A DNA stretch of 64,000 nt, taken from positions 186,248,001 through 186,312,000 of the forward strand of contig OZ360223.1 in assembly GCA_977017645.1 (NCBI GenBank). Direction: 5' to 3'. The DNA comes from Torpedo marmorata (Eukaryota). This document shows, piece by piece, positions 9,873 through 62,075 of this stretch (its first letter is position 1; each line of letters begins with the position of its first letter). The notes under the pieces were generated by a model. It was given only the letters and a program-made list of their open reading frames with translations, searched no databases and had not been told where the DNA came from. Position numbers and translations under genes: made by a program.

Positions 9873-12096
9873 TTTTTTTTTTTTTTTTTTTTATTATTTT
9901 ATTTAAATTTTTTAAATCACATAATACATAATTCAAAATCCAAAATATATAATTCCAAAATACAGTGATATAAATTTCCTCCCCCCACTCCCTCCCACCC
10001 CTCCCCAACCCCCCAGTCCCACTATACTAAAAATAAAATAGATAAAGAAAAATAAAGAGAAAAAGAAAAAGAGATTAATAATGAGGAGAGAGCCATCTAA
10101 AAACTAATTCTAATCTGGAGGTTAAACTCGCCAATAGACCTAGTTCCCAAAAAATTTCAAATCCTCAAACCCATAACCCTCATGTATGGGCTCCAAATTT
10201 TTAAAAATAAATGATATTTATTCCGTAAATTATAGGTAATTTTTTCCAAAGGAATACATGAACGAAGTTCTGCATGCCATCTATCTAAATTCAAATCTAA
10301 ATCTGATTTCCAAGTAATAGCGATACATTTTTTTGAAACCGCTAAAACAATACGTAAAAACTCTACCTGATACATATTCAATCTGTTCCTAATACTAAAT
10401 TTTCTAATATCTCCAAATAAAAATAACATAGGGTCCAATAAAAACCTAACATTGAAAACTCTTTCTAAAAAATCTTTAACTTTAAACCAAAAATCTTGAA
10501 TCTTAGGACATGACCATGTAGAATGAACAAAAGAACCTACTTCATTCTTACATCTAAAACACAAATCTGACAATGCCGGATTAAATTTCTTTAGTTTTTT
10601 TGGTGTTAAGTATAATTGATGAAAAAAATTATATTGTACCAATCTATACCTAACATTAATAACTTTAGTCATACTTAACTTACATAAATCCTCCCAATGT
10701 TTTTGATCTATACTAATATTTAAATCTAATTCCCATCTTAATCTTGATTTATGTAACCCTACTTTAGGCATTTTTTTCTGAAGTAATTTATACATTTGAG
10801 AAATAAACTTATTAATATTTGTTTTAGTAATTAATAATTCCAACTCATTATATCTTGGAGTAATCAAATTATCTCCTAATTTCTCAACTAGAAAAGCTTT
10901 AATCTGATAATAGACTAACCATGTATTATCTAATATATCAAATTTTTCTTTCAGTCTTTGAAATGTAACAAATCTTCCAGCTTCAAAACAATCTTTAAAA
11001 TTTTTAATACCTTTTTGAAACCATATTTTTAATAATTGATTATTCATAGAAAACGGTAAAAGTGGATTTTGATATATTGGCATATTTAATGAAATCTTAC
11101 CTTTCCCACCTATTCTTTTATCTACCTCTGTCCATATATCCAATAAATGTTTAATAATCGGTGAATTTTTCTTTTTAACTGATAATAATTTAGAATTCCA
11201 CTTATAAATAATATCCTCCTTATAATTTTCTCCGATATTATTTAATTCTATATTAATCCAAGCAGAAGTTTTAACTAAATCAAAAAATTCATTAACAAAT
11301 TTTAATTGAGCTGCTTTATAATAATATTGAAAATTAGGGAGTTGCATACCTCCCATCTCATAACTCCATGTTAACTTCTCCATACTCACTCTTGCTAACT
11401 TCCCTTTCCATAAAAATTTCCTAACTATAAATTTTAAATCTTTAAAAAATTTTTTTGGAATTCCAAAAGGAATTGATTGAAAAAGATATTGAATTCTTGG
11501 AAAAATATTCATCTTAATACAATTTACTCTCCCCATTAAAGTTATAGGTAAATCTTTCCAATTTTCCAAATCTTTCTTTATTTTTGTAAGTAAAGGTACA
11601 TAATTTAATTTATATAAAATTCTCTAATTTTGTATCTACTTTTACTCCCAAATATTTAATTCCTTCTTTTGCCCATTTAAATTCCGTAACTTCTTTACAT
11701 CTAGTATAATCACCTTGAGATAAAGCCATTATTTCACTTTTATCCGCATTAATTTTATATCCAGAAATTTCACCATATTCTGTTAATATAATAGCTAAAT
11801 GTTGAAGTGATGAAACTGATTTTGTCATATATATTAATACATCATCTGCAAACAAACTAATCTTATGCTCTTCTATACCAACTTTAATCCCCACTATATT
11901 AGAATCTGTCCTAATCAATTCAGCTACAGGTTCTATTGCCAAAACAAATAAAGCTGGTGATAAGGGACAGCCCTGTCTTGTAGAACGCGTTAAAGAAAAT
12001 TTTGACGATATTTGTCCATTTGTAATTACTTTAGCTGTAGGTTCCTTATATATAGTTTTAATCCAATTTATAAAAGTATTCCCAAAACCAAATTTT
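9873..12096 (-). mobile_element. Young 5'-truncated L1-clade LINE (RT C-terminal half, CCHC domain, 3' UTR, polyA)
   Basis: TRQGCPLSPALF, LFADD, KYLGV, CFRC...HSTWSC. Poly(T) 9873-9892. TSD AGTTTGTGAAATTC at 9859-9872 and 12097-12110. One frameshift at ~11615. Confidence 0.97.
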
Positions 12097-13019
12097 AGTT
12101 TGTGAAATTCTTGATGTTGGAGTGAAAGCTCCCAATTGAAATTAATTTGAAGAAATTCATCTGTTTGCACTACTGAAGACTCCACATTGACTAATGTCAT
12201 CACAAGCACCATTTCAATACTTGGAAGATCATGCATGTGTATAATTTAAGTTCTAAATTTCAATACCTGACTGCAACATTATTATTTTCAATTTCTTGGT
12301 TCAGTGGCATGAAATATTCCTTTTTGAGGGATAAAATGATAGCTGTTTCTTCAATTTGTTTGGAGCAATTTCCTTCCATTATAAATTTTTTTTAAAGTCT
12401 GTTAACTGTAGAACTGCCCAACTATTTTTCCTCAAACTAAGAGTGCTGCAAAGAAGAGGAAGAGTTTAAAAATAAATGAGGAATGATTAAGTAATTGATG
12501 TTATTGACAGAAGATATGTGAAGGAAAAATGCTGCATAAGGTATGAGGAAAATTGGCAGGTCGTTTTTTTAAACTTCTAATGCAATCATGAAACGAGAAG
12601 TAATATAACGTAAAAAGCTTGTAACCTGTGCTATTGCTATAGAATATTATGGGATCCTTTTGCAATTTGAGGGCTGGAACATTCTTGACTCAGACAATGC
12701 TTTGTATTCGACCACACAAGAACTCCAAGGCTACATTTAACTTTTTTTCTGGTCCCAGGGGTCTAATCAAACAAGGCCTTGCCTCTGGAGCTATACTGCA
12801 GTGACTAGGCCCTGGGTAGTGGGAATCAGAAGGCCTACTCCTGTACTGCCCCAATAGCCTTCTGATGCCTTGTGTGTAAAAAAAAAGAAAAATGTGTTTA
12901 AAATACAAATTATGTAAATTCATCATAAAATTTATATTACTTGAAGTTAACAAAACCAAATCACTTGCCTTTGCTTACTTTTCCATCCAGATTGAATGGG
13001 GCTATGCCCCATACTCCTC

Positions 13020-21174: not shown

Positions 21175-22830
21175 TAAGAACATAAGAAATAGGGGCAAGA
21201 GTAGGCCATCCGGCCCGTCGAGCCTGCTCTGCCATTCAATGAGATCATGGGTTTTTTTTTTGGTTTTTAAAAAAAAATATTTTATTTAAAATTTTAAATC
21301 ACACGATAATACATGTTTATAAAATACAAAATTAACAAAATACATGTGATATACTTTCACCCTCCCCTCCCTCCCTTCCCCCTCCCTAACCCACCCACCC
21401 CCTCTACTCTACTAAAAAAAGAAAGAAAATAAAGAAAAAAGAATAGAGTGTGGAGAATGTCATTCTAAAAGAAACAACTATAAATTAATTTTATTGTGGA
21501 ACACAGGTTCGCCAGTCAGACCCGATATCAAGAGATCTTCAAATCCTTAAACCCATAGTTTTTGTATATGGGCTCCATACCTTCAAAAAGAAATGATATT
21601 TATTACGTAAATTATAGGTAATTTTTTCTACATCAGATTTCCATGTAATAGCAATGCATTTCTTTGAAACAGCTAAAGCAATTCGCAAAAATTCTATTTG
21701 GTACATATTTAATCTCATTATATTACTAATTCTTTTAATATCTCCAAACAAAAATATCCTAGGATCCATTGGGAGTGTAATTCTTAATACTTTATCTAAA
21801 AACTTTTTAACTTTCAACCAAAAATCATATATCTTTGGACAAAACCACGTAGAATATACAAAAGAACCTTCCTCTTTATTACATCTAAAACATAAACCTG
21901 ATAATGTCGGATTAAATTTTTTTAGTTTCTTAGGAGTTAAATATAACTGATGCAAAAAATTATATTGCACTAACCTATATCTAACGTTAATAATCTTCGT
22001 CATACTTTGTTTACATATTTCTTTCTAATGTTCCTCATCTATTGTTACATTCAGATCTAATTCCCATTTTAATCTTGATTTATGAATTCCTGGTTTAGGC
22101 ATTTTTTTCTGTAACAATCTATACTTTTGAGAAATAAATTTATTTATACCCCCATTAATAACTAGTAACTCCAATTCACTTTGTCTTGGTAAGATTAAAC
22201 TATGCCCTAACTTTTCAACCAAAAATGCTCTTATTTGATAATAAGCAAAGAGTGTATTATTTAATACATTAAACTTCTCTTTCATTCTTTGAAAAGTGAT
22301 AAATTTACCAGCTTCAAAACAGTCATTTACTTTTTTAATCCCTTTTTGAAACCAAATTTTAAACAATTGATTATCAATAGTAAATGGGATAAGTTTATTT
22401 TGATATAAAGGCATGTTACAAGAAATTAACCCTTTCCCTCCTATCTCCTTATCCAGTTTATTCCATATTTCTAACAAATGCCTTAAAATAGGGGAGTCCT
22501 TACCTCCTCTTAATAATAATTTAGAATCCCATTTATAAATAACCTGATGATAGGCTCGTCTTTACCTACCTGCCTTTTCCCTTTGTAAAAATCTATCCAA
22601 CCTTGCCTGAAGTATATTCACTGAGGTAGCCTCCACTGCTTCAATGGGCAGCGAATTCCATAGATTCACCACCCTCTGGGAAAAGCAGTTCCTCCTCATC
22701 TCCGTCCTAAATCTACTACCCTGGATCTTGAGGCTGTGTCCCCTAGTTCTAGTCTCCCCCACCATTGGGAACAACTTACCTACCTCTATCTCATCTCTGC
22801 CTTTCATAAGGATATGTAAATTTCCAAACC
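21175..22830 (-). mobile_element. CR1 3' end (21175-21250 and 22544-22830) split by an L1
   Basis: Tail aagaacataagaaatagg; coding GKLFPMVGETRTRGHSLKI..RRNCFSQRVVNLWNSLP. Confidence 0.9.
21251..22543 (-). mobile_element. 5'-truncated L1, second subfamily
   Basis: ORFs 22025-22477 and 21539-22003 are homologous to the 470-aa ORF at 10157 and also end in MGLRI; poly(T) at ~21252; internal deletion. Confidence 0.95.
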
Positions 22831-29367: not shown

Positions 29368-29553
29368 CAGTGGTTATCAACCACTGGGCCATGGCCCACT
29401 CTTGGGCCACAGCGTCTTTCCATGTGGATCTTTAAAAATGTTAAATAAAATACTTTAAATTAGGTAAAGATGTGTTTCTTACAGAGCTGCCTTTGACTTG
29501 AAAATATTGCTCAGTCATTGCCACTAGTGGGCCATGGCATGTTAGACGGGAAG
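29368..29553. mobile_element. hAT-like MITE fragment
   Basis: Starts CAGTGGTTATCAAC (hAT/Charlie-type terminus) with TGGGCCA subterminal motifs at both ends; right TIR lost or merged into the satellite. Confidence 0.55.
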
Positions 29554-32370
29554 CCCCTCTGTTTCTCCACCTCTGTTTCTCCCCCCTCTGTTTCCCCCCT
29601 CTGTTTCCCCCCCTCTGTTTCTCCCCCTCTGTTTCTCCCCCCTCTGTTTCTCCCCCCTCTTTTTCTCCCCCCTCTGTTTCTCCCCCCTCTGGTTCTCCCC
29701 CCTCTGTTTCTCCCCCCTCTGTTTCTCCCCCCTCTGTTTCTCTCCCTCTGTTTCTCCCCCTCTGTTTCTCCCCCTCTGTTTCTCCCCCCTCTATTTCTCC
29801 CCCTCTATTTCTCCCCCTCTGTTTCTCCCCCTCTGTTTCTCCCCCTCTGTTTCTCCCCCCTCTTTTTCCCCCCTCAGTTTCCCCCCCTCTGTTTCCCCCC
29901 TCAGTTTCTCCCCCTCTGATTCTCCCCCCTCTGTTTCTCCCCCTCTGTTTCCCCCCTCTGTTTCTCCCCCTCAGTTTCTCCCCCTCTGTCCCCCCTCTGT
30001 TTCTTCCCCTCTGTCCCCCCTCTGTTTCTCCCCCTCTGTCCCCCCTCTGTTTCTCCCCCTCTGTTTCTCCCCCTCTGTTTCTCACCTTCTGTTTCTCCCC
30101 CTCTGTTTCTCCCCCTCTGTTTCTCCCCCTGCTTCTCCCCCCGTCCCCCCCTCTGTTTCTCACCCTCGGTTTCTCCCCCTCTGATTTTCCCCCCTGTGTT
30201 TATCCCCCCTCTGCCCCCCCTCTGTTTCTCCCCCCTCTGTTTCTCCCCCTCTGTTTCTCCCCCTCTGTTTCTCCCCCTCTGTTTCTCCCCCTCTGTTTCT
30301 CCCCCCTCTGTTTCTCCCCCTCTGTTTCTCCCCCTCTGTTTTTCCCCCTCTGTTTCTCCCCCTCTGCTTCTCCCCCTCTGTTTCTCCCCCCTCTGTTTCT
30401 CCCCCTCTGTTTCTCCCCCTCTATTTCTCCCCCTCTGTTTCTCCCCCTCTGTTTCTCCCCCTCTGTTTCTCCCCCCTCTGTTTCCCCCCTCAGTTTCTCC
30501 CCCTTTGATTCTCCCCCCTCTGTTTCTCCCCCTCTGTTTCTCCCCCCTCTGTTTCTCCCCCTCTGTTTCTCCCCCTCTGTTTCTCCCCCTCTGTTTCTCC
30601 CCCCTCTGTTTCCCCCCTCAGTTTCCCCCCCTCTGTTTCTCCCCCTCTGTTTCCCCCCTCAGTTTCTCCCCCTCTGTTTCTCCCCCCTCTGTTTCTCCCC
30701 CCTCTGTTTCTCCCCCTCTGTTTCTCCCCCTCTGTTCCCCCTCTGTTTCTCCCCCTCTGTTTCTCCCCCTCTGTTTCTCACCTTCTGTTTCTCCCCCTCT
30801 GTTTCTCCCCCTGCTTCTCCCCCCTGTCCCCCCTCTGTTTCTCCCCCTCGGTTTCTCCCCCTCTGATTTTCCCCCCTGTGTTTATCCCCCCTTTGCCCCC
30901 CTCTGTTTCTCCCTCTCTGTTTCTCCCCCCTCTGTTTCTCCCCCTCTGTTTCTCCCCCTCTGTTTCTCCCCCCTCTGTTTCTCCCCCTCTGTTTTTCCCC
31001 CTCTGTTTCTCCCCCTCTGCTTCTCCCCCTCTGTTTCTCCCCCCTCTGTTTCTCCCCCTCTGTTTCTCCCCCCTCTGTTTCTCCCCCTCTGTTTTTATTC
31101 CCCTCTGTTTCTCCCACTCTGTTTCTTCCCCTCTGTTTCTCTCCCTGTTTCTCCCCCTCTGTTTCTCCCCCCTCTGTTTCTCCCCCTCTGTTTCTCCCCC
31201 CTCTGTTTCTCCCCCTCTGTTTCTCACCTTCTGTTTGTTCCCCTCTGTTTCTCCCCCCTCTGTTTCTCCCCTCTCTGTTTCCCCCCTTCTGTTTCTCCCC
31301 CTCTGTTTCTCCCCTTCTGTTTCTCCCCCTCTGTTTCTCCCCCCTCTATTTCTCCCCCTCTGTTTCTGCCCCTCTGTTTCTCCCCCCTCTGATTCTCCCC
31401 CTCTGTTTCTCCCCCCTCTGTTTCTCCCCCTCTGTTTCCCCCCCTCTGTTTCTCCCCCTCTGTTTCCCCCCTTCTGTTTCTCCCCCTCTGTTTCCCCCCT
31501 TCTGTTTCTCCACCTCTGTTTCTCCCCTTCTGTTTCTCCCCCTCTGTTTCTCCCCCCTCTATTTCTCCCCCTCTGTTTCTGCCCCTCTGATTCTCCCCAT
31601 TCTGTTTTCACCCCTTGTTTCCCCCTCTGTTTCTCCCCCTCTGTTTCTCCCCCCTCTGATTCTCCCCCTCTGATTCTCCCCCTCTGTTTCTCCCGCTCTG
31701 TTTCTCCCCTCTGATTCTCCCCCCTCTGATTTCCCCCCCTCTTTTTCTCCCCCTCTGTTTCTCCCCCCTCTTTTTCTCCCCCTCTGTTTCTCCCCCCTCT
31801 GATTCTCCCCCTCTGTTTCTCCTGCTCTGTTTCTCCCCTCTGATTCTCCCCCCTCTGATTCTCCCCCCTCTTTTTCTCCCCCTCTGTTTCTCCCCCTCTG
31901 TTTCTCCCCCTCTGTTTCTCCCTCTTCTGTTTCTCCCCCTCTGTTTCTCCCCTCTGTTTCTCCCCCTCTGTTTCTCCCCCTCTGTTTCTCCCCCTCTGTT
32001 TCTCCCCCCTCTGTTTCTCCCCCTCTGTTTCTCCCCCCTCTGTTTCTCCCCCTCTGTTTCTCCCCCCTATGTTTCTCCCCCTCTGGTTCTCCCCCTCTGT
32101 ATTTTTCCGCTGTTTCTTTCCCTCTGTTTCTCCCCCCTCTGTTTCTCCCCCCTCTGTTTCTCCCCCCCCTGTTTCTCCCCCTCTGTTTCTCCCCCTCTGT
32201 TTCTCCCTCTCTGGTTCTCCCCCTCTAGTTCTCCCCATCCGTTTCTCCCCCCTCTGTTTCTCCCCCCTCTGTTTCTCCCCCTCTGTTTCTCCTCCTCTGT
32301 TTCTCCCCCTCTGTATTTTCTCCGCTGTTTCTTTCCCTCTGATTCTGCCCCCTCTGTTTCTCCCCCTTTG
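29554..32370 (+). repeat. 2.8-kb pyrimidine minisatellite, unit CTCTGTTTCTCCC(C)1-2 (~15-16 bp)
   Basis: Seen directly; accounts for the low-complexity ORFs at 29441-32403. Confidence 0.99.
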
Positions 32371-33289
32371 AATCTGCTCTTCTGATTCTAATCTGAATTC
32401 CAAAGATTTTCAGGAAGTCAGAGGAAATGCTTCAAGAACATTCAAAAATTCTCTGTTGAAAAATGTAACTTCCTTACCTATTCTCGGGAATCACTTGCCC
32501 ATGACCAATTAAACTGGTGAAGGGGCATCCGGCAAAACACCCTGTGTCTCTCTGACAGGAGCATGCAGAAGCCACATTAAATCAGTAGATTAAGTGCAGA
32601 ACCTCCCAACCAATTTGTGCCGCTCGCCTGCCCTGGCGAGCACCATCTGCACCACCTGTGGCAAAGACTGCAGATCTGCATTCTTCTCTTCTTCCAGTTC
32701 AGAACCACAGAACCTGCGTGAGACCATGTCATCATTCACCCAGAGTGTGTCCAAAGAAGTAGAAACATCACGTTATGAAAACAATTATGCAGCTTTCATA
32801 GGTTTAAAAGCATAATGTGAATGCTGATTTATTCAAAGTGTTATGTGAGAAATGGATGGAACTCGAGTGAGGTGTACTCATAACTAGACTGGGTTCGCGA
32901 GATTGCTGAGTCTTTCCATACAGAGCAGTTGACTGCCAGGAAATTACTTAACATTTTTCCTGTGTAATTTGACGTGTTCTACAAAGCTGGTTTGTCAGAG
33001 TGCTACTCCTTTTGTTTGTTTAACTTCCAAGCAGGCAGATTCAGCACAGCTAGTTCAGTCTTGCCCATCTCTGAAGATCTCCATGCTTGAGAGAATCCCC
33101 AGTCTGGAGAGAAGTCACTCCCAGGCCAACTCCACCAGTGCTGCACTGTTTCTTTGCAGAATTGGCCAGGTTTACAATCCAAACTACATGAAGGGTCACA
33201 TATGAAAAATGTGTCATAATTTTAACTGCATATAGCGAAGCACTGACATTTTAAATTATGTTTAAAGATACATATGACCTCCTCCTTGC

Positions 33290-35285
33290 TTCGCTTCTCA
33301 CTCTCCTCTCACTCCCTCACTGCTCCACTCACTTCCCCCTCACTCTCCCCTCAGTCCCCCCTCACTGATCAACTCCCTACTCACACCCTCCTCACTGCTC
33401 CCCTCACTCCCCCCTCATTGCTCCGCTCACTCACCCCCACTGCTCCACACTCTCCACCACTCCCCCTCATTCCCCCCTCATTCCCCCGCACTGCTCCACT
33501 CACTCCTCACTCCCCTCACTCCCCCCCACTGCTCCACTCACTCTCCCACTGCTCTACCCCCTCCACTCACACCCCCCTCTCTGCTCTTCTCACTCCCCCC
33601 TCATTCCTCCCCACTGCTCCACTCACTCCCCCTCACTTTCCCCTCACTACTTCACTCACTCCCCCCTCACTGCTCCTCTCACTCCCCCTCACTCCTCCCC
33701 ACTGCTCCACTCACTCCCCCCTCACTGCTCTTTACTCTCTCCTTACTGCTCTACTCACTCTTCCCTCACTGCTCCACTCACACCCCTCATGCTCCACTCA
33801 CTCCACCCACTGCCCCATTCACTTCCCCCCACTGCTCCACTCACTTCCCCCTCAATTCCCCTTCCCCCTCACTGCTCCACGCATTCCCCTCACTGCTCCT
33901 CTCACTCATCCCCCCACTTCCCCATTCCCCCTTCCCACTCACTCCCCCCACCGCTCCACTCACTCCCCCGTCGCTGATCCTCTCACTCCTCCCTCATCCC
34001 CCTCTCCCCCACTGCTCCACTCGCTCCCCCCTCACTCCCCCTCTGCTCCACTCATCCCCCTCACTGCTCCTCTCACTCCTCCCTCATACCCCTCACTCCC
34101 CCCACTGCTCCACTCACTCCCCCCTCCCTCCCCATTTCCCCCTCATTCCCTCCACTGCTCCACTCACTCCCCATTCCCCCTCATTCCCTCCACTGCTCCA
34201 CTCATTCCCCCTCACTTCCCCCATTCCCCCTTCCCCCTCACTCCCCCTCACTGCTCCACTCATTCCCCCTCACTGCTCCACTCACTCCCCCTCACTCCCC
34301 CATTCCCCCTTCCCCTCACTCCCCCCACCGCTCCACTCACTCCCCCGTCGCTGCTCCTCTCACTACTCCCTCATCCCCCTCTCCCCCACTGCTCCACTCA
34401 CTCCCCTATTCCCCCTTCCCCCTCACTCCCTCCACTGCTCCACTCACTCCCCATTCTGCTTCCCCCCTCACTCCCCCCACTGCTCCACTCATTCCCCCTT
34501 CCCCCTCACTCCCCCACTGCTCCACTCACTCCCCCTTCCCTACTCACTCCCCCATTCCCCCTCACTCCCCCCACTGCTCCACTCACTCCCCCTTCCCTAC
34601 TCACTCCCCCATTCCCCCTCACTCCCCCACTGCTCCACTCACTCCCCCTTCCCTACTCACTCCCCCATTCCCCCTCACTCCCCCCACTGCTCCACTCACT
34701 CCCCCTCACTGCTCCTCTCACTCCTCCCTCATCCCCCTCACTCCCCCCACTGCTCCACTCACTCCCCCATTCCCCTTCCCCCTCATTCCCTCCAATGCTC
34801 CACTCACTTCTCCCTCACTGCTCCTCTCACTCCTCCCTCACATCCCCCTCACTCCCTCCTCATTGCTCCACTCACACTCCCCCTCATTCCCCCCATTGCT
34901 CCACTCAGTTTTTCCTCACTGATCCTCTCACTCTCCCCTCATTGTTCCACTCACTCACCCCTCACTCCCCCCACTCTCCCTCAGTGCTCCCTGACTCTCC
35001 ATCATAGCTCCACTCACTCTGCCCACACATCCCCCTCACTGCTCCTCTCACCCCCCCTTCACTACTCCCCTTCACTCCTCCACATAGTCCCCCACTTGCT
35101 CCACTCACTATCCCCTCCACTTACTCCTCCCCTGCTGCTCTACTCACTCCTCTCTCTACTCACTTCTACTGCTGCATCTACAATCACTTCCCCCCCACCC
35201 CACTCATTCCTCCTTCACTCACTCCTCCCCCCTTCTGCTCTACTTACTCCCCCTCATTACTCCATTCACTCCCTTGTCACTGCTT
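33290..35285 (+). repeat. ~2-kb C-rich degenerate satellite (core CACTGCTCCACTCACTCCCC)
   Basis: Seen directly; source of the 577-aa P/L/S/H/T pseudo-ORF. Confidence 0.97.
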
Positions 35286-35310
35286 CACTGTACAGAAAAC
35301 CATATTCATA

Positions 35311-35512
35311 CTCAGCAGGTTGGGCATCGTATGTGGGCAAGGAATCAGAGTGGACAGTTCAGGTCATTAACCTTGCATCAGAATTGAATGGTCTTCATCC
35401 AAAATGTTGACTGTTCTCTCTCCACAAATGTAGCCTGACCAGCTGAGTACCGGGTATTTGCTACCTTTTAAAATTTTATTTCAGTTTGCCAGCATCTGCA
35501 GTATTTTGTGTT
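35311..35512 (+). mobile_element. Old Penelope-like hairpin element
   Basis: Inverted arms ctcagcaggt... / ...gcctgaccagctgag, with tail ccagcatctgcagtattttgtg on the right. Confidence 0.65.
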
Positions 35513-42514: not shown

Positions 42515-44068
42515 GTCCAGTCAATCACAGGATGAGCGAGGCTATGCTTTTTGGCAACAGACATGACCGGTCCACTGTTCCCTTACCTGAAGGTGGTGGG
42601 GATCTGGTTCGGAAGGGCTGAGACATGTAACAAAAATTGGCTGAAGTGGACAGGCAAGGTTAACCAAAAACTGAGATTGTGGAGGCAGAGGTCCCTCTCA
42701 ATAACTGGTAAGATGCAAGGTCCTCTTGGTGCTGCTGTACTTGGTGCAGGTGTGGCCCAAACCCACTCCTCTAGCCTGGCAGTCACCTGAGCTATCGTGT
42801 GCTGGGAAAGTACCAAAGTGTACAGCTTTGTGCTGAGGTTCTATCTGTTCCCCAGAGTTGCCCCACTACCGCACAGTGACTCAGTCAGTCAGACATTGAT
42901 ACTCGTGAAACACAAAAGTCTGCAGATGCAGTGATTGAACTAATAACACAATGCTGGAGAAACTCAGCAGGTCAAACAGCATACTTTATGTAGCAAAGAT
43001 AAAGATACATAACCAACATTTTGGGTTCTGCCTTGATGAAGGGCTCAAGCCGGAAATGTTGGTGACGTATCTTTATCTTTGCTATATAAAGTACATTGTT
43101 TGACCTGCTGAGTTTCTCCAGCCATGTGTTCAGACATTGATGCTGATGTTCTAGTGGTTGTTTATGGAAAAGTTATTGCATGACAAGTCCAACTGCAGGG
43201 TCAGCATGGAACATCCTGCAGGCACTGCGGGACAAGAACTTGATGGATCCCATGGTGTGGTTCCCTGAGCAGACTGCCCAAATTATCTGAGAGAATGCTT
43301 CATCACCAGAATTCACCAAGCAGCACTAAGACTTAGCTTGGCTGGTAGTCAGAGAGACCTTCCCAATCAGACTCTTCCTATTCAGTTAGAATCTCACCCC
43401 AACACTCAGAATGGCTGGGATGAGGATGAGATAGTCGCCTACCTCTTGGTAGATGGTGTATTTGCAAATAAAATTCAGAGAAACATACCAGGTGCTCTGT
43501 CACAGTTCATCCCAACCAGCTGTGGTACAGGGAACTCTTTCATCTATACACTGTTCAAATGATGGATACTGTGAGAGACATCAAGTGAGGCTGGAAGATC
43601 TTCAACTCAGTGAAAGAAGCTCTTTGAAACTGGCCTATGTTTTCAAAGCGGAATATATTAACTTGCCTTTAAGCTCTTTGGTCTGCCCAAAATTTGTTGG
43701 TCTTCCAGTAAACAAAATGTCCATAAGGAAATAATGCCAACACATATATTCTAGGCTGCAGGATCAGTGCTGAGGGACTGCAGAACTCAGTGCAGCCAAT
43801 GTAAAGGCTTTGTGGAGAAGGACCGCAATGTCCAGCAACCTTCTGTCATTGGACATTGAGGGGCTAAGTGTATTGTTGGAGCCTCTCAAATACATGAAGA
43901 TATAAGATGGTGTTATGCACACAAAATGTGTGAACGCTACCAATGTTTAGAACTGATAACATTGAATATGCAGAAAGAACGACACAATAAGCGTAAAGAG
44001 AGCCAAGCAATTTTTTTTGGTGCTAATATATATATTTTATGAATAAATGTATTTTTGAAATGAAAACA
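42515..44068 (+). mobile_element. Old Tx1-type L1 3' portion, interrupted at 42901-43129
   Basis: YLKVVGIWFGRAETCNKNW...KLRLWRQRSLSITGK; ends gaataaatgtatttttgaaatgaaaa. Confidence 0.8.
42901..43129 (-). mobile_element. Penelope-like asymmetric hairpin element with hammerhead-like core
   Basis: 12-bp TSD TCAGACATTGAT (42889-42900 and 43130-43141); inverted arms of ~80 bp; TTGATGA-A-GGGC TCAA GCCG-GAAA-TGTT GGT GACG-TA at 43033-43069. Confidence 0.85.
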
Positions 44069-46600: not shown

Positions 46601-46969
46601 AGTATATAGACAGAGTAATAAAGGCACACAATTGTTGATGTCTTTGGCATTAACTGGTTACTTTTAAGTGAAAGAATGCAGAATTTAAGTAAACAAATCT
46701 AATTTATGTTTTTTTTAATTTCTTTATGGTGAGCATCATTAGATCACCAATCGTAACTTGGTGTGGGTTCCTTTGCAATAACGTGTGTTTGATCTTAGAA
46801 AGAAAAATGAAGGGGCCATGTTGGAATTTTGTATTTTACCATGCTAACTACAGTAATATCGAGTCATCGCCTTCAGTTATACAACCCAGTTATAACTTGA
46901 CACAATGTCAGATCCATTCTCTTCACATATTTTGTTCGTTCACGTTCCTTTTCCTACTTAGTTCCATAT

Positions 46970-48076
46970 CGATCTTCATCGACTACAGCTCGGCCTTCAA
47001 TACCATTATTCCCTCAGTGCTGGTCAAGAAGCTACAAACTCTAGGCCTCTGTACCCCACTCTGCAACTGGATCCTTGACTTTCTCATCGGAAGACCACAG
47101 TCAGTACGAATTGGAAACAACGTCTCCTCCTCACTGATTATCAACACAGGCAAACCCCAAGGATGCGTGCTTAGCCCACTGGTCTACTCGTTATACACCC
47201 ATGACTGTGTGGCCAGGCACAATTCCAATGCCATCTACGAGTTTGCCGATGACACCACAGTTGTCGGCAGAATCACAAACGGCAATGAGTAAGTGTACAG
47301 GAGGGAGATAGATTAGCTCGTTGAATGGTGTTACGACAACAACTTTGCGCTCAACGTCAGCAAAACCAAGGAGATGATTGTGGACTTCAGGAGGAAGTCA
47401 GGGGAACACGCCCAGTCCTCATTGAGGGCTCAGTAGTGGAGAGGGTCAAGAACTTCAAATTCCTGGGTGTCAACATCTCCGAGGATCTGTCCTGGAGCCT
47501 CCACGTTGATGCAATCACAAAGAAGGCTCGCCAGCGGCTATACTTTGAGTGTCTGAGGAGATTCGATATGTCACCGAAGACTCTCGTAAACTTTTACAGG
47601 TGTACCGTGGAGAGCATTCTGGCTGGTTGCATCACTGCCTGGTATGGAGGCGCCAACTCTCAGGACAAGAATAAACTCCAGAGGGTTGTTAACTCAGCCT
47701 GTGACATCACAGGCACCAGACTTCACTCCATCATGTCATCTACACGAGACGGTGTCGTAAAAAAGCAGCTTCTATCCTCAAAGACCCCCACCACCCAGGC
47801 CATGCCCTCTTCACTCTGCTACCATCGGGAAAAAGGTACAGGAGCCTAAAGTCGAGCACTCAACGGCACAAGGACAGCTTCTTCCCCGCTGCCTTCAGAT
47901 TCCTGAATAATCAATGAACCAAAGACACTGACTTACTTTTCGTGCACTATTATTTATATATTTTTTATAGTAATGTCGTAAGATGGTAATAATATGAATG
48001 TTTGCACTATGATGCTGACGCAAAACACCGAATTTCATGACTTGTTCATGACAATAAATTCTGATTCTGATTCTGA
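46970..48076 (+). mobile_element. Rex1/Babar LINE, 5'-truncated (second subfamily)
   Basis: [49 protein letters not shown]; premature stop at 47290; tail ATGACAATAAA(TTCTGA)3. Confidence 0.96.
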
Positions 48077-57935: not shown

Positions 57936-58173
57936 ATATTTGTTTCTTGTTAAATTATGTGTCAATCTAAGTAGCAGATGAGCAGGTTTCCCATCTAACA
58001 GAATTGTGTGTGCAGCTTTCAAAGGAATCATGGCTTTTTACTCTCAGTTGAATTGTGGTTGACATCTCAGAAGGCATCAACCTTGAATTCCACTCAGTGT
58101 AAGCCTTTATATTATGATGGATTCACAGCAAGAACTTATAAAGCATCTCTGCTATCCTGTCACACCTGCCAAT

Positions 58174-58405
58174 AAAGTGAAACACAAAAGTCTGCAGATG
58201 CTGTGATCGTAGTAAAAACACAGAAATGCTGGAGGAACTCAGTAGGTCTTGCAGCGTAAATAGGAGGTAAATATATAACTGACATTTCTGGCCTGAGTTC
58301 TTGTTCAGGTATGAAGAAGGGCTCAGGCCCAAACATTGGTTATATATTTTTACCTCCTATGACGCCTCGAGACCTGCTGAGATCCTCCAGCATTTTTGTG
58401 TTTTT
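58174..58405 (-). mobile_element. Penelope-like asymmetric hairpin element with hammerhead-like core
   Basis: 12-bp TSD ACACCTGCCAAT (58162-58173 and 58406-58417); inverted arms of ~95 bp; TGAAGA-A-GGGC TCAG GCCC-AAAC at ~58312-58334. Confidence 0.87.
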
Positions 58406-59627
58406 ACACCTGCCAATGATACAGGGTCAGCAATGACTGTTGATTTACCTTTATATTTGAAACCAAGACCTCTTACCAAACAGAATTATTTATTTTATAT
58501 GAGAGCAAAATTTAAGATAAGTATTTACTGAGGAAGTTCATGATCTGAGTCGTGAATATGTCCTGATCTTAGTCCTTAATAGGATAGGAACAGTGAAGAA
58601 AACTTAAAGCTGATGATTTTGGTGTCACATCCACTTTATCAGCCAGGGTGCTAAAGGTTTTGCTTCGTGCTTATTGCTGGGCAGATGCTTGCATTAACTT
58701 GCATTCTTTCTCCCAAGTGGTTTCCTCGATCTGCTCTTTGAAAGAAAATCCATATCTTCAAATTGAGCTTATGAATTCTCCACAAGTAACATAATTCAAA
58801 ACCTTTCCTATTTTGATCTAAGTGGCTTCAACAATGGGTTTCACCTAATATCTGTTGGACATCAGCTGGATTTTGCTGATCCAGACCACATTCCAGATCA
58901 GTGCTCATGGACCCTACATGCCAGACGTACTGAACCCAGATAATGCAACAGCATTCTCTACCTTGAAACAGAGCCCGCGGTGCTGCAGTGAAGAGCCCCT
59001 GCCCCATAACCATCCTGAAAGCTCCAAAGCCAACAAAACCCCGACCTCAGCTTCACCAGTTGCAAAGGCTGTGAATAATTTTTAGAGACATATAAAAACT
59101 GCTGCGGTTGAAATAAATAAATTTTGAAATTTAAAACTAAGATATCGAAAAAAAAACTTAAGATTCCTAAAAACAAATAAGTAATTAAAAACATTAACAG
59201 AAAGTAATTTTAAATAAAGAAACATAGCTTACTCTTTGCTTCCTAATCCAAGCTTTAGAATTTCCATTGATTTGTCTTGGATTCTGGTGGATCAGATGAG
59301 AGGTTATCCTGGGCAATATGCTGGAACATCAGTGACAATGATCCACTGCTGAACTCCATGTGGAGTCCACCCATGGATTCGTCCTTATGAATTTGTCAGC
59401 TTTTTGTGAGTTAAAAGGTTAAATGACCAGAGATCCAGAGCATGAACAGCAAATTCGTGGGGCAGATTGAAAAAGAACTTAAAAGAGGAATCCTAAGCTT
59501 TAAAAATTGAGTTCAGTGAAGACATGATAAACCTTTATAAAACACAGGTTGTGTCCTATTGTGGGTAACTAATTTGTGAAAGCTTAAGGGTGCAATAGGA
59601 AATTACTGGAATGATGCACTCATCTCT

Positions 59628-60954: not shown

Positions 60955-62075
60955 CAATTATTCTCTTTGGAACAGTGGAGTTTGAGGGGGATTTTGATGA
61001 GGTATTTAAAATTAAGAAGACAAGTTAGGTGGGAGAAAGGTGAAGAATAGAATGAAGGTGATTGGCAAAAGAACCACAGTAACATGTGTAGTTAGAATCT
61101 GGAATGACCAGCCAAGGATGGACTGGAAGCAGATTGAAATGTGACATTCAAAGGAAAAGTAGTTAAGTTCTCGAACTCTTAAGCGCTCCTGCGGGGTCCA
61201 GCCGCCCAGTCGACTGCCGTCGGCTCCGCACGGGCTTTGAACAGCCCGTTGAGGGAGCCGACGGTGGTTTTATTTGAGATCCCGCGACCGCGGGGTCTGT
61301 GCCCAAGATTGCAGCACCTTTTAACCGGCAGCAGCCACGAGGGGCTGCAGACTCCGGGGAAGCGGAGGACTGGAGCAGGGCACCAGAGGACGGAAAGATC
61401 ACCCCCGTCTGAGAAGGAGAAGCGAAGGAGATGACCCACGGGACGGTGACCACGGCGGCGGACCAGTGAGGGGCTCTGAGGCTGAAGGACCAGTGCTGCT
61501 GGCGACTAGAGGCGAGGAACCCGCGGAGGCTGTGGGCTGCTGGAGACTGCTGTCGGGGGACTCACGCCGGGCTGCGGACTGCTGGAGGCTGGCTCCAACT
61601 GGCTGGAGGAGTAGCAGGTATCGGAACCGGGGTGCGAGAGTGTGCCGAGGGTGCCGAAGGGTTCCTGACCGTGTCGGAGGTTCGGATCTGGAGCTCGGGT
61701 TGCCGATGGTTTGGACTGGACTCTGTGTGGCTGCGGCGGCTACGGAAGCGCTGGAGGCGAATCTACGGACACTCGGTGACTCTGGGGGGATTCTCTTTTG
61801 CTTCTCTTTCTCTGACTGTAAGGAATGTGAGAGGCACTTAGGCAATTTCTGCCGGTGGCGAATCTGTCTGCCTTGTTGCAGGCAAAAAGAAATTTCATGG
61901 AATATGACACTGTTTTATTACTATGACAATAAATTGAATATTGAATCTTGAATGGAAAACCTGCAGGAATTACAAGGTTTTGGGAAAGGGTGGAGCAGTG
62001 GACCTCGCTGGAATACTCTCGCAAACAGCTGGATCACACTAATTGGGCCAAATAGCCTCCTTCTAAATTGTAACC
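60955..62075 (+). mobile_element. Old CR1 3' end split by the GC-rich element
   Basis: ttctctttggaacagtggagtttgaggggg (LFSLEQxxLRG) ... gggccaaatagcctccttct. Confidence 0.7.
61170..61953 (+). mobile_element. GC/CpG-rich non-autonomous retroelement with Rex1-type tail, copy 2
   Basis: Homologous to 24240-25114; ends ATGACAATAAATTGAATATTGAATCTTGAAT; many intact CpGs. Confidence 0.82.

Follow-up and report, generated by a model that had tools for sequence, protein, structure and literature searches.

A short head-to-head pair of truncated Penelope ends in an NFI gene of Torpedo marmorata, from a family with a U3-G8 hammerhead motif

The window, a stretch of 64,000 nucleotides of the Torpedo marmorata genome, falls inside a plus-strand NFI gene, after its DNA-binding exon (C22:185.93 Mb) and before the next exon detected (186.42 Mb). 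The best solved-structure match of the DNA-binding exon is NFIA, and the insertion described here lies on the sense strand of the gene, so that its original placement on the NFIA pre-mRNA strand stands. The insertion interrupts an old LINE ORF2 fossil on the plus strand (approximate limits 42520..43800), whose paralogues carry RT and zf-RVT domains and are colinear with both flanks. Other LINE ORF2 fragments occur at 10160-12245, 21542-22561 (minus strand) and 46693-47846 (plus strand), with open stretches of up to 488 aa, while 29440-35400 is occupied by ~6 kb of low-complexity C/T-rich tandem sequence containing long spurious open frames. A second hairpin insertion of the same anatomy lies at 58161-58420; it belongs to a sister subfamily (N7 = A, loop UCAG), has a target duplication of 12-14 bp and again carries its tail on the left arm.

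The insertion is real and spans 42904..43129 (226 bp) between two plus-strand copies of a 15-bp direct repeat that differ at one position (42889..42903 and 43130..43144). Both copies align to one single site in L038, an uninterrupted paralogue of the host LINE, so that they represent a true target duplication and fix the insert at 226 bp; of the eight LINE paralogues aligned, the other seven gave right-flank alignments that started behind the repeat. The insert and its target duplication had both been recognised in the original prediction, whose sizes (229 bp and an exact 12 bp) do not hold. Two inverted arms of 77 nt (42945-43021 and 43054-43130) are 90% complementary, and the RNA fold of the insert (z = -16.8) was equalled in 0 of 200 shuffles. 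The arms mismatch at 8 of 77 positions, which indicates that the insert is old. The one-armed tail noticed earlier is also present, as ~40 extra nt (42905-42944) on a single arm.

The two arms are head-to-head truncated 3' ends (pLTRs) of a Neptune-type Penelope element. On a scale that sets hammerhead core position 3 to 0, the tail-bearing arm (42905..43025, minus strand) extends from about +17 to +144 and retains only the GAAA half of the ribozyme. Its terminal ~40 nt (42905..42944, minus strand) are the Penelope 'tail', which falls between the two preferred 3' ends of the family and has described counterparts (PMC8557442, PMC11167929). The tail-less arm (43031..43129, plus strand) covers -2 to about +100, with its start inside a family-wide pile-up of 5' ends. 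Between the arms a junction of ~5 nt (43026..43030), on our reading of the sequence, is assignable to neither.

Searching the 6.2-Gb genome with the insert as query returned 3,396 candidates, the best 40 of which were mostly hairpins, and a degenerate 32-nt ribozyme pattern had 26,600 exact matches (reversed control, 0). Extension of copies upstream led to L106:1973-6933, a full-length partial tandem whose pLTRs measure ~1.07 kb and whose RT and GIY-YIG frames are broken; its last 145 nt are matched by both of the insert's arms. In a young subfamily all 40 scored hits were 100% identical over 431 bp, and young copies hold open frames, the longest of 845 aa, that encode RT, a CX4CX2C linker and GIY-YIG. 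A single ORF, RT followed by GIY-YIG, shares the terminus of the insert in L106, L357 and L361, bearing out the proposed Penelope origin and supplying the coding partner whose search had been proposed. The Pfam matches are significant yet below the curated cut-offs (RVT_1 best 27.5 bits against 29.6; GIY-YIG best 22.1 against 22.6). The linker in P0001, CARRRCNTC, is of the CX2-5CxxC type described as marking Neptune and Nematis (PMC8557442), and the element would be Neptune-type, the clade name being taken from this linker motif, which is shared with Nematis. Neptune and Poseidon are reported as widespread vertebrate clades in one survey (10.64898/2026.07.22.740005). Among the 10 regions examined, none held an intact young unit complete at both ends.

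Three further observations concern the parent family. Several multi-kb head-to-head pairs occur in the young subfamily (L308, L326-L365), which has a U2.1-G1.1 wobble. Just behind the tail at the start of the L106 element (L106:3045-3125) hammerhead-like letters occur, a GAAA leading into a hairpin and then a CUGAAGA word, but no fitting stem I was found. Among four assembled contig sets the family was seen in sequencing runs from three organisms, although contigs cannot give RNA ends. The 88% match between window 61472-61949 and L106:7431-7902 reflects a dispersed repeat unrelated to the Penelope unit.

The hallmarks of endonuclease-bearing (EN+) Penelope elements are present: a partial tandem with pLTRs, an inverted 5'-truncated neighbour and an optional tail of 30-40 nt. 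As described in PMC8557442, EN+ insertions share with this family the partial tandems, the inverted truncated copy and one-sided tail of 30-40 bp, the pLTR hammerhead, the order RT then GIY-YIG and the Neptune-like CX2-5CxxC linker; relative to that description the window's insert differs in size only, with arms of ~100-120 nt. In 90 copies selected through a motif that lies downstream of the ribozyme, the 5' ends vary continuously from beyond -600 to +35, while 3' ends fall into two classes, tail-less at about +104 (51 copies) and tailed at about +144 (39). An inverted partner accompanies 21 of the 90. Both 3' ends could be resolved in 17 of these pairs, all of which have the tail on exactly one arm (the four others were set aside as unresolved), and the same holds for 4 of 4 multi-kb young pairs. 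The earlier proposal that the inverted copy lacks the tail is therefore upheld for the window's insert and for the resolved family pairs. In a ribozyme-picked sample of 55 loci three inverted pairs (L052, L067, L142) have the tail on neither arm. Target duplications of 9-18 bp were found for 23 of 66 copies (10 of 17 hairpins) and for 0 of 66 controls. Such a continuum is described for Penelope elements (PMC8557442), and the window's insert falls at its short end.

This anatomy also bears on whether the hairpin spreads as a unit. A DNA transposon (MITE) would account for inverted arms and a target duplication, but the arms are asymmetric and correspond to the 3' end of an RT/GIY-YIG element rather than to anything with a transposase, and the duplications vary between 9 and 18 bp; this candidate was rejected and retains next to no credence. 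A retrozyme-like or MITE-like non-autonomous hairpin mobilised by Penelope enzymes is better motivated, given the many short hairpin copies among the 3,396 candidates and their best 40, and the proposal that retrozymes are derived from pLTRs (10.64898/2026.07.22.740005). Such a unit is nevertheless very improbable, the reading being already largely refuted: central junctions differ from hairpin to hairpin, copy lengths grade into multi-kb coding copies of like anatomy, and neither arm of the insert carries a whole ribozyme. As described (PMC7229834; 10.64898/2026.07.22.740005), non-LTR retrozymes share with the insert a type I hammerhead and kinship to pLTRs, but they are head-to-tail tandems of units each with a mostly canonical hammerhead and have circular RNAs, whereas the insert is a single head-to-head pair. 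With continuously varying 5' ends and no tandem units, the insert is a truncation product of an autonomous element and not the member of a non-coding retrozyme-like family that had been envisaged. Separately, L064, L148/L183 and L153 are internally deleted tandems: upstream of the ribozyme, only the 60-170 nt that begin behind the tail are present, and these run directly into the ribozyme region. They are possibly small non-autonomous units or template jumps, and their existence leaves some room for a minor non-autonomous route.

Family membership, anatomy, truncation, the target duplication and the one-sided tail were each observed directly, and it is highly probable that the insert comprises two 5'-truncated, head-to-head 3' ends of an autonomous Neptune-type Penelope element, set between 15-bp duplications, likely in one event, with a hammerhead that is predicted to be dead. 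The mechanism is suggested by in vitro work on Poseidon of Anolis carolinensis, whose protein is reported to cut and extend both strands from two internal starts flanking the tail (PMC11167929). By this model, the GIY-YIG endonuclease would nick both strands ~15 bp apart, each nick would prime reverse transcription at one of two internal starts (about +104 and +144) flanking the tail, and both short cDNAs would stop early and have their far ends joined head to head. One of them stopped at -2, within the family's 5'-end pile-up, probably at the template 5' end or at a strong stop. A single reverse transcription with a template switch would be expected to give the same DNA product as such twin priming. 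Poseidon also shares with this family the two preferred 3' ends and a reported lack of ends at the cut site, and its ribozyme mutants still insert in vitro; its ribozyme differs in being C3-G8 and in overlapping the ORF start, while here the motif has U3 and lies ~200 nt behind the stop codon (PMC11167929).

Intact copies of the family motif consist of stem I CAUACC, core UUGAUGA, an extra A, stem II GGGC-UCAA-GCCC, GAAA, CG, U, C/U and GG-U-UAUG. Helix III is the 4-nt palindrome ACGU, with the cut site after GUC or GUU; position H17 is always a C or a U (58 and 68 of 126 copies), and the free positions vary (N7 is U, A, G or C, as do loop II and the bulge). The motif has the marks of Penelope minimal hammerheads, namely stem I, G10.1-C11.1, a base after A9, a palindromic 15.2-16.2 and NUH. 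In agreement with Cervera and De la Pena (2014, PMC4209133), these are shared as type I architecture, a short stem I, an extra nucleotide between 9 and 10.1, G10.1-C11.1, a loopless palindromic 15.2-16.2 and a mostly dispersed, single-copy occurrence; stem II is 4 bp here against the 7-8 described there. The extra A after A9, previously listed as a defect, is hence a described feature of the class (PMC4209133).

This fold was compared with the one first proposed by covariation in 29 hand-picked copies from several subfamilies, among them the window's copy, with 5'-truncated copies excluded. The Penelope-type fold pairs 93% of cells, and in 25 cells both sides have changed, a result reached by 0 of 500 shuffles; alternatives with slid partners score far lower. 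The covariation of stem I, which amounts to about two changes between related subfamilies, supports the fold and stops short of proof. The original assignment of a hammerhead-type motif to the letters at 43033-43069, which were correctly quoted, survives; its stem III ending in a GUA cleavage triplet does not, since it pairs 69% of cells with no covariation and is equalled in pairing by 499 of 500 shuffles. When folded in isolation, the motifs do not surpass their shuffled versions (z -1.07 and -0.38). Nor did hammerhead models recognise the motif: with E values up to 10 allowed, Rfam gave no hammerhead match to the window's copy or to a young relative, and its only matches to these two copies were hairpin-driven microRNA models below the gathering score.

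In the window, the motif is a decayed minimal type I hammerhead at 43031..43067 on the plus strand. A stem I remnant (43031-32) precedes core positions U3-A9 (43033-39) and the extra A (43040), followed by stem II (43041-52, with C11.1 changed to G at 43052), GAAA (43053-56), the helix III letters (43056-59, with C15.2 changed to U), the predicted cut after 43060 and the 3' strand of stem I (43061-67). A stem I partner, reported earlier as not visible, is thus 43061-43067, with two 5'-strand letters surviving at 43031-43032. Decay of this copy had been proposed and is evident in the truncation of stem I to those two 5' letters and in the changes at C11.1 and C15.2. Within the insert, a hammerhead-competent fold carries a penalty of 21 kcal/mol relative to the long hairpin and its pair probabilities are 0. 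Being both truncated and mutated, and held in a 77-bp hairpin, the window's copy is accordingly predicted to be inactive, and as a cutter of the NFI transcript it is predicted to be harmless.

A further presumed sign of decay in this copy, U3, turned out to be the state of the family. Of 126 copies picked at loci outside the ribozyme, 123 have U at position 3 and 121 have G at position 8. Young copies picked by coding DNA are uniform, with U3, G8 and GUC in 30 of 30, so that a Watson-Crick 3-8 pair is absent from the family motif. Pattern matches with U3 outnumber those with C3 by 16,145 to 1,039, and a second pattern pair by 5,357 to 226. Copy-specific decay was rejected also from the other side: apart from a few that came from an older family, the 30 C3 matches viewed were U3-family copies altered by isolated changes or deletions. 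In sister families that look older, C3 is retained and stem I has other sequences. These canonical-C3 families are represented by L266-L295, one with stem I GGCA-C-UC/GA-C-UGCC and a central C-C mismatch, another with a weak stem I and a single-U difference from the U3 families beside position 3. A tree of 38 copies and 69 columns left a single and a double origin of U3 both standing.

Substitution of U for C3 alone strongly slows hammerhead cleavage, and U3 opposite G8 would be expected to weaken or stop cutting. Penelope hammerhead variants are described as C3-G8 or as compensated U3-A8 (PMC4209133, in its main text; PMC3088659), which sets the present U3-G8 family apart, and in a tested Penelope ribozyme breaking the 3-8 pair by C3G or G8C abolished activity (PMC11167929). 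A natural core with U3 and G8 has a precedent in the halovirus variant U(2a)G(2b)U(3)U4G5A6C7G8A9 (PMC7151607; PMC3088659), a rare viral case that differs by a 2-nt insertion. No kinetic data for U3-G8 were found in the literature searched, and Penelope ribozymes with a U3-G8 core may already be in print.

The positions at which copies end were used to examine cleavage. In a census of 533 arms, 342 were kept after ribozyme-picked ones were dropped, and 250 of these have a 5' end inside -115..+69; arm ends here are alignment ends. Of the 250, 60 end within -5..+4, a peak to which subfamily divergence may add, and a similar excess is seen in the 90-copy sample (27 of 57 5' ends within -30..+5). 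By contrast, no pile-up was found at the cut site, with 2 of 250 arms ending at +28 and 2 of the 90 copies within +26..+32. The peak at the front edge of the ribozyme is consistent with transcription starting there or with a strong RT stop, and copy ends are probably set by something other than RNA cleavage at the hammerhead site. Few ends at +28 do not prove inactivity: by analogy, the anole element is likewise reported to have none and yet cuts with its protein (PMC11167929). By its sequence the family ribozyme is a minimal hammerhead of the dimer type, whose cleavage may be weak or absent.

Two readings of the U3-G8 motif were weighed. Under the first, catalysis would have been lost with the change of C3 to U, and the fold would be kept for protein binding, as a transcript start or RT stop, or simply by descent. 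The excess of U3 over C3, extending to the youngest copies, the clustering of 5' ends at the motif's front edge and the success of Naiads, which are reported to thrive without hammerheads (PMC8557442), bring this reading to just short of an even chance; set against it, in the copies seen the catalytic letters besides position 3 have undergone no subfamily-level change, although this equally fits continued catalysis. Alternatively, the motif could be a working ribozyme that cuts after GUC as a dimer or with the aid of the element's protein, the fold being kept for that purpose. Stem I covariation between subfamilies, the freedom of the free positions, the constancy of C/U at H17 and the palindromic helix III would suit such a ribozyme, as would the anole ribozyme, reported to cut only with protein (PMC11167929). 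This is nonetheless rather unlikely, given the scarcity of ends at +28, the need for C3-G8 pairing in the Penelope ribozyme tested (PMC11167929), covariation that represents about two events among related sequences with core letters that were part of the search patterns, and isolated motifs that fold no better than shuffled ones.

The insertion itself is ordinary and of a known kind, while U3-G8, fixed throughout the family and in very recent copies, is a modest new variant. In an active lineage the 3-8 core pair has become fixed in a changed form while stem I still covaries, with C3 relatives in the same genome, and the role of the hammerhead in endonuclease-bearing Penelope elements has been called unclear (PMC8557442). 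One speculative reading, which we regard as doubtful, is that the dominant, still active Neptune lineages of this genome use a fixed U3-G8 hammerhead that still cuts, as a dimer or only when bound by the element's own protein, and would thus be throttled and protein-gated in tens of thousands of copies. Were the motif non-catalytic, Penelope elements could drop catalysis and yet keep the fold. If the U3-G8 core works, searches based on CUGANGA would miss large families, and the older sister families with C3 that this genome also holds would provide built-in controls for a U3-G8 hammerhead that still cuts.
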